Assembly (NCBI GenBank): GCA_951406725.2
Contig: OX597837.1
Location: 10,230,001 to 10,294,000 of the forward strand
Reading direction: 5' to 3'
Length of the DNA stretch: 64,000 nt
Source: Octopus vulgaris
Taxonomy: Eukaryota
A program made the translations under genes and the position numbers. How positions within the stretch are numbered: position 1 is the first letter of the stretch; every line of letters begins with the position of its first letter. Below, piece after piece: positions 1,531 through 58,276 of this stretch. A model generated the notes under the pieces. It saw nothing but the letters and a program-made list of their open reading frames with translations. It was not told the DNA's origin and did no database searches.

Positions 1531-4201
1531 GTGAGGGTTGAATAATAGATTGAGTTGATTGCTGGGCTAAAAACACCTGAATTGACACCTGAACTGGACG
1601 GGGAGAGAAGGAGGAGAAATGATTAACTGCTACTTAAGACACCGGAAACGTATTTAGGACATCACAACTAATCATACACACAATACTACTGACACATGTC
1701 ACAACCTCTGTCATAGCTACGACAGTCACCCGAGCAACCTCAGTCGTAAACTCAAATCACAACGGCCGACGGTCTAACTCAGTACTAAACACGTCAGAGG
1801 TACCACAACCACCACGACCATCACTAAACACTTATCAAATCATTCATCAATCATCATCATCATCATCATATAACCTCTATTTTATCATGCTTACATGGCT
1901 AGAATAAATTTTCTACGGCCAGATGCCCCTCATGTCACCAACCATCACCTGTTTCCAAATAAGGAAATGTTCGATTTCCGCCGAGGTCAACTTTGCCTTT
2001 CATCCTTTCGGGGGTCGATGAAACAAGTACCAGTTACGTACTGGGTCAAAGTAATCGTCTAACCCCCCTCCTCCCCTCAAATTGCAGGCCTTGTGCCTAT
2101 AGAAGTAAAATGTGTCTTCATGGGGAGACAACCTCAACCTCGCTAGTATGACCGTGATGCACATTTACAACCATCGCTTGATATCTTGGCAACAGTACAC
2201 GCAAACACGGCGGGCTTCTTTCAGTTTCCGTCAACCAAATGCACTCGCAAGGCTTCAGTCAGAGATAATAAAAGCCAAGGGACCAGTTAAGCAGAGGGGA
2301 CTGAACCCAGGACCTCGTGGTTCGAGAGCAAGTTTTTAACCACACAACCACCTCCAGCCAACTCCCTGAAGCATGGCCACCACAAAGATTCACATTGCCT
2401 CAGTTTAGAGGGCTTCATTAAAACACAAGCTGTTGATTAAAATGATACCATTTCCTGGAACTTATCTGAGACGAAAGGCAAAACTGACCGATTTCGACAA
2501 GATTTGAACCCCGAACATACAGAAATAGTAACTACATACCACAACCACTAAGTAACTATTAACTAGAAACATTATTATTTCTAAATATCTCAACAAGAGG
2601 TATTCAGTCACAGTACTCTAAAATAAATATTATTTGCCAACAGGTGACAGACACAGGTGGAGACGATGTTTCCTGGGGTTAAACAACAGTAACATTCGTC
2701 CCAATCGGGACTGCCATATTATGCTGGCAAATAATCTTTACTTTAAAGTAACAATTATTTCCCACATAAACGATAAGGTCAGAAAATTGGTGGAAGGGAA
2801 CAACACATCGTATTCGACACCAATTAAAGGTGAACAAGGCTGGGCTTGATGAACCCAGACACAATTTTTTATGTCTTATCACGAGCCCTTGGACCTCATA
2901 AAGTCGGAGTTTAATCCGGTTTGTATGACGAATAAATGATTGAGATTATGATAGGTCCACCGAAGGATTGTTAACTTCACAGCTATTGCTGGAATGTCAT
3001 GTACAACTGAGCGGAGCGGGGGTGGGGAACGTGAATTGTGTCCGGGAATCGAAACCTCGATCCCATGACCATGCGTACAACACACTGAGAACTGCAACTT
3101 TGTCCAACACACCATTTTATCTACCAAGCCCTCTTCTATTCTTTCATTGCCACAAGATTGCCACGGATTGCAGGGATATACACAATGTGGTAGAGTTCCC
3201 TAGAAAGGATGACGGTTAAATGGCCAGTCAAGTAACCCAAGAGGGCCAAAAGCAGTTTCTAACATTGGGCAAGTGTCTTCTACTATAGCCTCAACCCAAC
3301 CAATGCCTTGTGAATGGACTTGGAAACTGCATGGAAGCCTGTAATACACAGGTGTGTCTTTTTACTTGTCTCTCTTCCTACATTTGACAACCGATGTAGG
3401 TTTGTTTAGGGTCCAGGCAAGAAGAGACCGAAAGAATTTTAGTGCCAGACTTCACCAAAAAAAAAAAAAAAAAAGAAAAAAGAAAAGAAAATACCGGGGT
3501 CAATCGAAATTGGTGCTCCAGTATGACCTCCATCAAATCAAAGAAAAACAAGGAAGAAGAAAGTAAAACATAACCCCACCGAATCAAAATTGACCTTGGC
3601 GTGATTTGAACCCCGAACTTAAGTAGACTGAATAAAAAAAATCCGCTAGTTTCTTTTGCCTGCCCCTTTTTTAACAGCTCTTCCAATCCACCAATAATAA
3701 TTATGAACCACCTCTAATGGGGGGAAAAAAAGAAAAAAAAAAAAGACGAAAGACAGGTCTTCTCAACGGGTGGGTCTCTTCTGTGGTATATACTGACATT
3801 CCTACTGCGCCTAAGTTTCTAAGAAGACGGTGATCTGGTTTGGAAAATATTTTATCTGCTTAACAACAACAACAACAACAACACCACAGATAAAAAAATG
3901 TCCTCACTACAACACGTATTTTTTATCACTGACCACCGCCATCACCACCACCACTACCTCCGCAACAATGCACTTTTGAAATGCCTGCGTGAGTGTATGA
4001 GCGTAGTGTAGGAGTTATTTTTTCTCATGTTCGAAAGCTGGAGGTTATCAACCCAGAAACACTTATGCAAATAACGTATTAACGAGTTTAATTACCACAG
4101 ATACACACACACACACCTATGTGTACTGTAAAGATAGAGAAAAGACGAACGGACAGAGAATGTGAGCGAGCGCGTGCGCATGTGTATATATATTTATATA
4201 T

Positions 4202-5027: not shown

Positions 5028-5469
5028 TATATATATATATATATATTAACATGTAAGAGTGTTTAGAGAACCACCAACGCCTATTACGACTCCCGGATGT
5101 TGCTGAAGAAGAAAGAAAAGAAGTAGGAAATCAGAAGAAACGATGAATGGTAGGAAGAGGAAAGTGAAAGCAAAAATGCTGGCAATGATAGAAGAGAGAA
5201 AGAGAGGAAGAACAAAAAAAAATAATAAGAGAAAAGATAGATTATCCGACGGGGTGGGGTAGGGTGGAGTAGATTTTGATTATTACTAAGGCTTGCAAAG
5301 ATATGAAGGGAGACGAAAGGTGGACAGAAGAGATTCGATTCTGGTGTAACTACTTTAGAGAGAGATTAAATTGCCCTCCCCCATTTATTATTATCATCAT
5401 CTGCCCCCACCCCCAGCAATTTTGTTAAAAGGTGGGTGAATTTTGCAGAAAAACAGAAGACGAAGATTG

Positions 5470-5620
5470 GTCTATAAACAAGAAACAAGTGTATAAGTTT
5501 GACGTTCGGAAAGGCGATAAAGTCTTTTACATTTCGAGCCTACGCTCTTCAGCAGAAAGGAACACGATGAAATAAACAGAGAGAGAATAATAAAAACTTG
5601 TGGATTTAGCGGTTGATCAG
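5470..5620 (-). mobile_element. Family D (hammerhead-bearing, Penelope-like), diverged copy
   Basis: Shares gtcttttac.tttcgagcctacgctcttc..cagaaagg with the copies at 19386, 44237 and 50457. Confidence 0.7.
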
Positions 5621-5666
5621 GGTGTCTGTGTGTGCGTGTGTGTGTGTACGTACATGGTTGGCTTGT

Positions 5667-19385: not shown

Positions 19386-19573
19386 GGGGGGAGTTTACGA
19401 AAAAAACAAAAGACGAAGACAGGTGGTGTAAAAAATAAACAGATGTATTAGTATAACGCTCAGGAATAGAAAAAGTTTTTTACGTTTCGAGCCTACGCTC
19501 TTCTACAGAAAGGGACACAAAAAAAACAAGGAGAGAAAAAAATGTGTGTAGTGGCTCACGATCTATCATGGCG
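19386..19573 (-). mobile_element. Family D (hammerhead-bearing, Penelope-like)
   Basis: gggagtttacgaaaaaaacaaaagacgaagacaggtgg...gtagtggctcacgatctatcatggcg; motif at 19476-19512; sits between microsatellites. Confidence 0.85.
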
Positions 19574-30929: not shown

Positions 30930-31312
30930 ATCCTTTACTATGGGTACAAAGCCTCTAACTTGAAAGAAGGGATTAACTGATTACGTCGACCCCACTCTTC
31001 AACTGGTACTTATTTGGGCGACCCCGAAAGGATGAAAGGCAAAGTCGACCTCGGCGGAATTTGAACTCAGAACGTAAAGGTGATCGAAATACCTATTTCT
31101 TTACTACACACAAGGGTCTAAACACAGAGGGGACAAACAAACGGATTAAGTCAATTACATCGACCCCACTGCGTAACTGGTACTTATTTAATCGACCCCG
31201 AAAGGATGAAAGGCAAAGTCGACCTCGGCGGAATTTGAACTCAGAACGTAACGGCAGACGAAATACCGCTAAGCATTTCGCCCGGCGTGCTAACGGTTCT
31301 GCCAGCTCACCG
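30930..31312 (-). mobile_element. Two adjacent SINE A copies
   Basis: gaccccgaaaggatgaaaggcaaagtcgacctcggcggaatttgaactcagaacgta at ~31020 and ~31195. Confidence 0.9.
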
Positions 31313-43310: not shown

Positions 43311-44163
43311 GCGGCGAGCTGGCAGAAACGTTAGCACGCAGGGTGAAATGCGTAGCCGTATTTCGTCTGCTGTTACGTTCTGAGTTCAAATTCTGCCGAG
43401 GTCGACTTTGCATTTTTATCCTTTCGGGGTCGATAAATTAAGTACCAGTTACGCCTCGGGGTCGATGTAATCGACTAAATCCCTCTGTTTGTCCCCTCTA
43501 TGTTTAGCCCTTTGTGGGCAATAAGGGAAGGAGTTGGCAGAATCGTTAGCACGCCGGGCGAAATGCGTAGCCATATTTCGTCCGCCGTTACGTTCTGAGT
43601 TCAAATTCCGCCGAATTCGACTTTGCTTTTTATCCTTTCGGGGTCGATAAATTAAGTACCAGTTACGTCTCGGGGTCGATGTAATCGACTTAACCCCTCT
43701 GTCTGTCCCCTCTATGTTTAGCCCCTTGTGGGCAATAAGGAAAGGAGCTGGCAGAAACGTTAGCACGCCGGGCGAAATGCGTAGCCGTATTTCGTCTGCT
43801 GTTACGTTCTGAGTTCAAATTCCGCCGAGGTCGACTTTGCTTTTTATCCTTTCGGGGTCGATAAATTAAGTACCAGTTACGCCTCGGGTTCGATGTAATC
43901 GACTTAATCCTTCTGTTTGTCCCCTCTATGTTTAGCCCCTTGTGGGCAATAAGGAAAGGAGCTGGCAGAAACGTTAGCACGCCGGGCGAAATGCGTAGCC
44001 GTATTTCGTCTGCTGTTGCGTTCTGAGTTCAAATTCCGCCGAGGTCGACTTTGCTTTTTATCCTTTCGGGGTCGATTAATTAAGTACCAGTTACGCACTG
44101 GGTCGATATAATCGACTTAATCCGTTTGTCTGTCCTTGTTAGTTCCCTCTGTGCCTAGCCCCT
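43311..44163 (+). repeat. Head-to-tail tetramer of SINE family A
   Basis: gag(c/t)tggcaga at 43316, 43531, 43745, 43959 (periods 215, 214, 214). Confidence 0.95.
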
Positions 44164-44236: not shown

Positions 44237-44421
44237 GGGGAGAGTTTACGAAAAAAACAAAAGACGAAGACAGGTGGTATACAAAACAAACAGATGTATT
44301 AGTATAACGCTAAGGAATACAAAAAGTCTTTTACGTTTCGAGCCTCCGCTCTTCTACAGAAAGATACACAGAAAAGAAACAAGGAGAGAAAAAATGTGTG
44401 TAGTGGCTAACGATCTATCAT

Positions 44422-44423
<2 letters not shown>
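44237..44423 (-). mobile_element. Family D (hammerhead-bearing, Penelope-like)
   Basis: Minus strand at 44327-44364: tcttt-CTGTAGA-A-gagc-ggag-gctc-GAAA-cg-TA-aaaga; flanked by (TATG)n and (TA)n. Confidence 0.85.
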
Positions 44424-49108: not shown

Positions 49109-50456
49109 TTGCCTCACTGATGAGATCCAATAAAGCGGAAACATGTGTTGGTACTTGTCGCATTACTGGTTTATAATATATACATTGGTTTTACTTAAAG
49201 CCTTAAATCCGACCTTTCCCATATAAGCAAGGAATAATTTTCGCCAAGGATACCTTCTTTCTTTTTTATTTATTTATTTTTATTTCTTACTTTTTAGGGC
49301 TTTCCTTCATCACAAATAAGAGGGAAACTTCAGTAGATCGGGAATTATGTTTTATACACCATCATTCCACCACGAACCACCACCACCACCAACCACATCA
49401 CCGGCAGCCCCCTTTCAAGCGACACCCACCTCGTGGCCGAGTTACCTCAGAGCAAACTCCTTTATGAATAGGAGGAGGGGGGTGTAAAGGTCATGACCGC
49501 AGTTTCAATCCAGATAAGATGGGATTAATAAAAGGTTAAAAGGAAGAGGGGAAGGAGAGAGAGTATACAGAGGGGGTGCGTATATATTATGTATGTATGT
49601 ATGTATGCATGTACGTACGTATATACGCATGTATATAAATATATGTAAATATATACGTATGAATATATATGTACATTTATATGTGTATGTATGTATATAT
49701 GCACGTCTATATGTATTTATATATGCACACACAGATATGTATATGTGTGTATATATATACACACACACACGTGTGTATATATACACACACACACACACAC
49801 ACATATGTATATGTGTGTATATATGTGTATAAAACCTACACATATTATACATACTCAAAGATATATATATATATAATATGTACATGCTTATACATACATA
49901 ATGTATACATGTTTACACACACACACACATATATATACACATACAAATACTTATACGTGTGTGTATTATACATACACAAAAATATATACGCGCGTGCGCG
50001 CAGACACACTCTCTCTCTCTCTCTCTCTCAAATATGCACACGATCCTGTTCGACCTCTTTCTCTAAATACACGCATTAAACACTTTCAAAAATACTCGCA
50101 TTAAAATATATACCCCGTGTATTTATAGCTTCATTTCGTTACCCTACAACGATGTTACCGGTTCACTGGGCGGTCAGTCCATCTGCCAGAAATAGCAGTC
50201 AAACCTTCTTCGTATCATAAGCGTGCGCGCGCGCACACACACACACACACTGGACTACGTAAGCCTAAATTCACTGCATATATGTGAGATGGAAAAGTAT
50301 AAGAAGGACAAACCCGAAACCCAGACCTGTACTAAAGAGGGCAGTGATAGGGTCGCGAATGGAGACGTATGAACTCCGATGAACTTAAATGATCGATTGA
50401 TTGGCCGGATGGATAAGCAAAACATCGATTATTTAATTGGTTAAATGTTTAATTAG

Positions 50457-50683
50457 GGAGAGCTTACGAAAAAAAAAAAAAAAAAGGACGAAGACAGGTG
50501 GTGTAGAAAACAAACAGATGTATTAGTATAACGCTCAGGAATAGAAAAAGTCTTTTATGTTTCGAGCCTACGCTCTTGTACAGAAAGGGACACAGAAAAA
50601 ATAAGGAGAGAAACAAATAGAGAAAAAAAGGAGAGAAACAAAATGTGTGTAGTGGCTAACGATCTATCATGGCGACTGACTCG
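50457..50683 (-). mobile_element. Family D copy with a 10-bp target-site duplication
   Basis: gtttaattag at 50447-50456 and 50684-50693. Confidence 0.88.
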
Positions 50684-50813
50684 GTTTAATTAGTTAGCTT
50701 ACAACTGATTCGAATTTTGGCACCAGAGCAGCAATTTAAGTAGGATAGATACGTCGATTATTGCCACCCCAGTGCTCAACTAGCCCTTTTACTTATTTTT
50801 ATCGACCACGTGA

Positions 50814-57384: not shown

Positions 57385-57511
57385 AATACACGCATGCACA
57401 AAATACATACACGCACAGAACGCGTACACATAGATGCACACGCGCACACACAAGATAATACGTGCAGATGCATGCAAACACACACACAGAGGTCAACAAC
57501 AAAACACACAC

Positions 57512-58003
57512 ACACTTGCATACATCCATAAATACACACTATGTATGGAAGCACATACACACATTTGCATATATACATAAATACACACTATGTATGGAAG
57601 CACATACACACATTTGCATATATACATAAATACACACTATGTATGGAAGCACATACACACACTTGCATATATCCATAAATACACACTATGTATGGAAGCA
57701 CATACACACATTTGCATATATACATAAATACACACTATGTATGGAAGCACATACACACATTTGCATATATCCATAAATACACACTATGTATGGAACGACA
57801 TACACACACTTGCATATATCAATACATACACACTATATATGGAAGCACATACACACACTTGCATATATACATAAATACACACTATGTATGGAACCACATA
57901 CACACACTTGCATATATCCATAAATACACAGTATGTACGGAAGCACATACACACATTTGAATATGTATATAAATGCACACTATGTATGGAATCACATACA
58001 CAC
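57512..58003. repeat. 49-bp minisatellite, 10 copies
   Basis: The ggaa anchor falls at 57547, 57596, 57645, 57694, 57743, 57792, 57841, 57890, 57939, 57988. Confidence 0.95.
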
Positions 58004-58276
58004 AGAGACGTACCTACATATATACGCAAGTAAACAGAAACACAGTCACTGAGGCGAACACCAACAACAAACCCATTGCGCTGCTATTTTTTTTTTTTTA
58101 GCCCTTGGTCCAAATCGGAGCTGGATGATCCAGTCGCTCGTGTATTCCCTTCTGTTCGCCATTGTGTCGTCCTTCGTTGGCTGAGATATAAATAGAAATG
58201 TGCCTGGTAATTTCTAGCAGATCAAACGACTGCATTACGGACCCTCTGCTTGATCCGTGTGTGTGCGTGTGTATGT

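Follow-up and report, generated by a model that had tools for sequence, protein, structure and literature searches.

The repeat at positions 44237 to 44423 of the analysed window, a stretch of 64,000 nucleotides from Octopus vulgaris (GCA_951406725.2, contig OX597837.1), is almost certainly the 3' end (pLTR) of an autonomous Penelope-like element (PLE). The assignment to a Neptune-type PLE follows from long copies that carry an ORF for RT and endonuclease (EN), from the domains found in one such ORF, and from a linker and EN that resemble those of the Neptune clade. Our preferred interpretation, to which we assign a probability of roughly 0.7, is that this Neptune-type end carries an attenuated hammerhead with U instead of A at core position 6 (U6), which by analogy with related ribozymes would stay mostly uncut and cleave slowly, as a dimer and with the assistance of a protein. 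The element itself is the tail of a known kind; what appears to be new is U6 as the state of a whole family.

Four copies with a hammerhead-like fold are present on the minus strand of the window (Table 1), as proposed in a first-pass annotation of this DNA, and their cores were read correctly there: CUGUAGA in the copies at 44237 and 19386, CUGUACA at 50457, and CUGCUGA in a copy placed at 5470-5620, which exists but extends from about 5434 to 5623. Two features described as common to all copies were found only in part. Stem I is complete in the 44237 copy but has lost its fourth pair in the 19386 copy, and GAAA-CG-UA is intact in two of the four copies but shows CA in that at 50457 and UG in that at 5470. 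The 44237-44423 copy sits between microsatellites. Its hammerhead comprises stem I, (U)CUUU/AAAG(A), with five pairs in all (UCUUU/AAAGA) and CUUU/AAAG as the inner four, the core C3-U4-G5-U6-A7-G8-A9 plus an extra A (C3 at 44359), stem II GAGC/GCUC at 44351-44340 (GAGC-GGAG-GCUC), then GAAA-CG-UA with its palindromic ACGU, and a predicted cut after A17 (H17 at 44332). A 10-bp direct repeat flanks the 50457 copy as claimed, but the duplication proper is 8-10 bp, since the outermost two letters of GTTTAATTAG may be the element's own.

Table 1. Features of the repeat family in the window, with strand and basis of the reading
Feature	Position	Strand	Basis or remark
pLTR fragment, 5'-truncated 3' end of a most likely Neptune-type PLE, CUGUAGA subfamily	44237..44423	-	96.3% identity over 187 columns to L093:7195-7380
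Minimal type I hammerhead fold	44328..44363	-	Motif reading and covariation across families
Core position 6, U replacing canonical A	44356	-	Motif reading; U6 in 96/100 first listed pattern matches
Second pLTR fragment, CUGUAGA subfamily	19386..19573	-	Core at 19508-19481; fourth stem I pair lost
Third pLTR fragment, internal duplication, G8C, CpG decay	50457..50683	-	Motif reading; core CUGUACA
Target-site duplication of the 50457 copy, left	50447..50456	.	10-bp direct repeat GTTTAATTAG
Target-site duplication of the 50457 copy, right	50684..50693	.	10-bp direct repeat GTTTAATTAG
Old-subfamily pLTR fragment, core CUGCUGA	5434..5623 (approx.)	-	C3 at 5555; clusters with the oldest subfamily in trees

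The claim that the repeat has no tRNA head agrees with the result that no tRNA gene was found anywhere in the window. An Rfam scan of the whole window gave no match at gathering thresholds, and when the whole 187-nt copy was folded against shuffled sequences, the hammerhead fold did not emerge as a stable minimum-energy structure (z = 0.70). A 27-nt match at 3732-3758 was discarded as low-complexity sequence. The window also holds a tandem array with a 49-nt unit at 57406-58091 and a 213-nt repeat that occurs twice in tandem at 43531-43957 and once inverted at 31096-31308 (87-90% alike); the latter is a separate dispersed family adjoining the 44237-44423 copy.

The size of the family was estimated with a 34-letter pattern in which positions 6 and 7 were left free. 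It gave 8,108 exact matches in the 2.8-Gb genome and none for the reversed control; hence, the matches do not occur by chance. The true copy number must be higher, since none of the four window copies matches this pattern exactly. Upstream of the pLTR, five loci (L002, L037, L041, L062 and L063) show a C-rich UTR and then an endonuclease ORF, and a 3.8-kb element with GLRF, DKG, RT, a Zn-finger-like CxxxxCxxC linker and EN could be read in two frames at L093 (L002/L093). Moreover, a protein search of the genome returned 22,554 candidates, of which 86 were scored, and a sense-strand hammerhead follows the ORF in 26 of 30 protein-anchored loci, in every case with U6 (26/26). Copies of a younger subfamily contain intact 969-aa ORFs with a U6-type hammerhead at both ends. 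An upstream, hammerhead-bearing pLTR was seen in nine of 12 fetched long copies, defining a unit of about 4.48 kb, and the same nine share one TA-rich sequence at the junction of the upstream pLTR and the 5' UTR. The start codon follows the motif at a distance of about 0.6 kb, and non-coding sequence holds the fixed end of the repeat.

The 969-aa ORF of one young copy (L207) matches RVT_1 with 32.2 bits (cut-off 29.6) at residues 455-644 and GIY-YIG with E = 0.0054 at residues 875-908, the latter below the domain cut-off; its best homologues carry RVT_1 and many of them also PF01541. The ORF of the element contains the motifs KPADKGG, a CSRPRCRTC linker and CISCSLC..YIGQT..EHL..RHF with the CCHH residues in EN. 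A single ORF thereby encodes RT followed by a GIY-YIG-type endonuclease, as is characteristic for EN+ PLEs. Among the EN+ clades, Neptune is the most likely assignment, judged from linker length and motifs and from EN compared by eye with the rows of Fig. S2 in PMC8557442; this comparison also underlies the choice of Neptune over Nematis. Inverted head-to-head pairs (L037, L069) agree with structures known for PLEs. The endonuclease in L081 was considered as the parent EN and rejected, because it is part of another, adjacent PLE family. This third Neptune-type family (EN first seen at L081:245-700, minus strand; 3' UTRs in L125-L144) is abundant, with 17,780 candidates, and has a hammerhead-like motif of its own with a U3-A8 core, a 2-bp stem II, a palindromic ACCGGU and a 6-bp stem I (17 matches, 10 of them identical).

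Collectively, the long copies that join the motif to an RT and GIY-YIG-type ORF bear out the fallback proposal of the first-pass annotation, namely that the repeat could be the pLTR end of a PLE, together with the link to PLEs on which it depended. Its favoured idea of a separate short, non-autonomous, retrozyme-like family found no support, because the long copies continue into the RT and endonuclease ORF. The copies are single and dispersed rather than arranged as tandem units with a hammerhead each, and the non-coding part is not set apart from a coding element: RT-EN is continuous with it in L002/L093, L037, L041, L062, L063 and the young copies. Three pLTR-fragment copies with 335-nt spacing occur at L030:858-1685, in one of 30 loci, where the flanking DNA is duplicated as well.

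The best reading of the sequence comparisons is that the fold is still under selection. Two subfamilies were compared with copies that had been found by DNA similarity (13) or by protein (22), without use of a hammerhead pattern. Between them, none of 30 core and stem columns differs, compared with 28 of 150 flank columns (p = 0.005), and within the motif the differences are confined to N7 and H17. When seven subfamily groups are compared, five changes are seen at N7 and three at H17, the latter only between A and U and never to G as the subfamily majority. The corresponding count for the seven groups (0/30 vs 61/142) is partly built in by pattern selection, and we therefore prefer the comparison of 0/30 with 28/150. 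The constancy of U6 over the seven groups is not significant alone, the chance of zero change at the flank rate being 0.55. Retained in the U6 family are C3, G5, G8, A9, G12, A13, A14 and A15.1-U16.1, and the extra nucleotide after A9, G10.1-C11.1, GAAA, a palindromic stem III and UH are all present as well. With all its remaining features in place, the motif thus was rightly recognised as a minimal type I hammerhead of the PLE kind; the family departs from the PLE-type core CUGANGA at A6.

The covariation analysis suggested for this repeat supports stems I and II across families. In 23 motifs from several families, 87.8% of the cells pair, and 37 two-sided changes were counted against 13.5 after shuffling (0/500); in controls with a slid partner, the values fell far below the real stem pairing. 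These rows were picked by hammerhead pattern, the relatedness among them is uncontrolled, and the signal consists of differences between families, for example CUUU/AAAG for stem I in the U6 family and GUUU/AAAY in a sister family. Inside the U6 family there is no covariation, as the stems are invariant.

The replacement of A6, noticed from the window copies, turned out to be a family-wide state that dominates in old and young subfamilies. Among the first 100 listed of the 8,108 matches, position 6 is U in 96, C in three, G in one and A in none, and position 7 is U in 35, C in 33, A in 26 and G in six (hand counts). The oldest subfamily gave U 90, C 8 and A 2 among 100 listed of 332, and U6 was also scored in 38 of 41 copies taken from locus flanks, a few of which were pattern-picked. 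Of the core variants described for the window, U6 is therefore real, but C6 and G8C represent decay of single copies and not family states. A shorter pattern with A6 has 134 matches in the genome. When positions 6 and 7 are masked for tree building, A6 copies are scattered over all subfamilies, mostly with the N7 of their own subfamily, and they are hence taken as back-mutations after insertion. An old A6-bearing founder subfamily, suggested by a first tree, was dismissed, because the masked tree scatters these copies and the oldest subfamily has U6 in 90 of 100 listed. Four runs labelled with other organisms gave contigs in which no alternative letter is listed at position 6 at a 5% share, but since these contigs also miss the known variation at N7, the comparison has no weight as evidence.

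A sister family shares stem II and has the loop UCC, stem I GUUU/AAAY and the canonical CUGACGA core; it gave 3,482 exact matches, with A6 in 96 of 100 listed (L145-L174, L287-L316). A search for its parent with one query in 30 loci detected no upstream EN within 1.5 kb. Four of 30 sister-family copies (L147, L148, L167 and L168; about 1500-1530), apparently of an older subfamily, have G at cleavage position 17. With a looser pattern, 402 further minimal hammerheads were obtained compared with five in controls, and about 83 of the first 100 have A6. These further hammerheads, at least 400 in number (L175-L204), show a diverse and covarying stem II and a mostly canonical core. From the sister family and these other hammerheads it is likely that A6 is ancestral and that U6 was derived before the oldest sampled subfamily.

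As had been claimed, the copies share a fixed 3' end; it lies about 95 nt beyond the predicted cut site. At this end, 21 of 30 tail-anchored copies abut TA-type repeats, with the end not located in seven, and such an insertion bias for (TA)n microsatellites is typical for EN+ PLEs. Behind the pLTR 3' end of tandem units follows a constant TA-rich stretch (L205-L216, e.g. L215:2251-2260). The 5' ends vary in position. Each of the 30 tail-anchored copies begins between 49 and 946 nt upstream of the cut, 17 of them at -87 to -109, and 10 of 16 young copies start at -102 to -113; short copies of the sister family likewise cluster about 90-100 nt upstream. Starts between -2 and +4 relative to the cut were counted by hand in about 24 of 100 listed rows, corresponding to about 21 events among 4,770 copies with this tail (about 0.5%), and in about four to six of 869 copies of the A6 sister family, in counts that cover the cut-site interval alone. 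A pile-up is thus absent from the U6 and the A6 family alike, and these counts do not separate an active from an inactive hammerhead. Among nine tandem copies, eight have 96.6-99.8% identity between the repeats, and none ends at -100; they reach -176 to -1441. It is therefore unlikely that -100 is a general stall site, and we infer that it more likely marks the 5' end of the RNA.

According to our preferred interpretation, the element's endonuclease would nick (TA)n DNA and RT would begin at the fixed 3' site of a pLTR. The TA-rich stretch past the pLTR in the RNA could pair with the nicked (TA)n target and in this way set the fixed 3' end. Starting from the upstream pLTR, RT would run off at the RNA 5' end about 100 nt before the cut and leave pieces of about 190 bp, while a start from the downstream pLTR would give long copies that read through an intact hammerhead, from templates that exceed one unit or are circular. 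Most of the RNA would keep its hammerhead uncut, and such cleavage as occurs would be slow, in the dimeric form and aided by the element's protein. Run-off appears a fairly probable origin of the short copies, and we see even odds that residual cleavage is the function still selected. Several steps have precedents in the available parts of published work. The hammerhead of an anole PLE cleaves only with its protein, its catalytic mutants still insert in vitro, and the protein nicks AT-rich DNA while RT starts at an internal site of mostly uncut RNA (PMC11167929). The pLTR of Penelope contains an internal promoter, and the transcript starts within the upstream pLTR (PMC2377424). An A6C hammerhead was reported to cleave at less than 0.1 per minute (PMC3088659) and to be almost inactive in Mg2+ while working well in Mn2+ (PMC7151607), and in a saturation study of one type III hammerhead all other single mutants of the CUGA turn showed low activity (PMC9901934). 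By analogy with these A6C and CUGA-turn mutants, the U6 core is expected to weaken cleavage. Based on the CUGA-turn mutants in PMC9901934, U6 may even be effectively dead, which counts against our preferred interpretation.

The fold could accordingly be catalytically dead and persist only because it serves the RT-endonuclease protein as a signal for binding or folding. It would fit that U6 never went back to A as the state of any of the seven subfamily groups while N7 changed five times, that the A6 copies are scattered back-mutations, that the motif is uncut in nearly all genomic copies, and that insertion in vitro tolerates catalytic mutants of the anole hammerhead (PMC11167929). We nevertheless regard a dead fold as doubtful, because the positions that vary are just those free in catalysis (N7, and H17 as A or U), C3, G5, G8, A9, G12, A13, A14 and A15.1-U16.1 are all conserved, and natural A6C hammerheads still have low activity (PMC3088659, PMC7151607). 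At the other extreme, the U6 ribozyme might be efficient in vivo, perhaps with cleavage restored by the element's protein: the two pLTR hammerheads would pair via ACGU, cut and re-join the RNA to a 4.48-kb circle, and multi-round copying by RT would rebuild the pLTR. Simple run-off from a linear RNA leaves the tandem copies unexplained, since none of the nine ends at -100, whereas a circle would account for their constant junction, for the fact that all of them extend beyond the cut site in the upstream pLTR, by 176-1441 nt, and for the high repeat identity in eight of them. By inspection, none of 86 listed RT-EN matches is in tandem with another, and circles have been proposed for PLEs (PMC4209133). 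However, the same picture would result if transcripts read through several units or if the element inserted into a pLTR of its own (PMC11167929, PMC2377424), and the ACGU duplex is worth only -1.7 kcal/mol, so that we consider the circle unlikely.

The abundance of short copies invites still another view, in which the pieces of about 190 bp stem mainly from non-autonomous solo-pLTR masters with their own promoter. In 27 of 30 tail-anchored copies the start is less than 110 nt upstream of the cut site, and transcription of such masters is conceivable in view of the internal promoter of the Penelope pLTR (PMC2377424). Yet, short copies have the same subfamily characters as long ones, in old as well as in young subfamilies, the 5' ends are staggered rather than fixed, and the copies are dispersed singly without tandem arrays, which together make such masters quite improbable.

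As a new class of mobile element the repeat would have little weight. It was known that pLTRs of PLEs contain hammerheads, that these cleave poorly and that insertion needs no cleavage in one in vitro system. A lineage of many thousand copies, in which U6 is fixed and the other catalytic and pairing positions are kept, permits a direct test against the A6 sister family. Furthermore, the PLE hammerhead that dominates in a genome escapes descriptors that require CUGANGA. If a protein did restore the U6 hammerhead and circles were formed, the U6 family and its A6 sister would provide a natural pair in one genome for the study of PLE hammerhead function, and a long-lived, highly successful retrotransposon would run on a core change that cripples protein-free hammerheads. 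A search of the literature found no A6U hammerhead in a PLE, and nothing on octopus, Penelope and hammerheads that describes the U6 family; the largest survey of variants (Lunse et al. 2017), which was outside the scope of this search, may contain A6U.

The closest known systems agree with the octopus element in many respects and differ in others, as far as the available parts of the respective papers go. The minimal hammerheads of PLEs described in PMC4209133 likewise have a short stem I, an extra nucleotide between 9 and 10.1, G10.1-C11.1 and the palindromic ACGU for stem III, occur in both pLTRs and are found mostly as single truncated copies. However, their core is CUGANGAH, with A6 in the rows of Fig. 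S3 and U3-A8 as the core variation, whereas U6 is a family state here. Neptune-clade EN+ PLEs (Craig et al. 2021, PMC8557442) share RT followed by a C-terminal GIY-YIG-type EN, DKG, the Zn-finger-like linker, partial pLTR tandems, inverted 5' copies and microsatellite targets, and their EN aligns best by eye, but the U6 core would escape the cuganga descriptor of that paper. In Poseidon PAc of Anolis (Frangieh et al. 2024, PMC11167929), a pLTR hammerhead, AT-rich targets and a lack of ends at the cut site are also seen, and uncut RNA is the main template; in contrast to the octopus element, the PAc hammerhead and the start of the ORF overlap, and RT initiates within the ORF. A natural change at position 6 with the rest intact is known from the A6C hammerhead of phage Bcep176, which in assays was weak in Mg2+ and good in Mn2+ (Perreault 2011, PMC3088659; Naghdi 2020, PMC7151607). 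There, C and not U replaces A, and the change is that of one phage sequence, not of a family with many thousand members. Finally, metazoan non-LTR retrozymes (Li et al. 2026, 10.64898/2026.07.22.740005) resemble the repeat as short non-coding pieces with a type I hammerhead related to that of PLE pLTRs, but they consist of tandem units with a hammerhead each, whereas the octopus copies occur singly, in continuity with a coding element.
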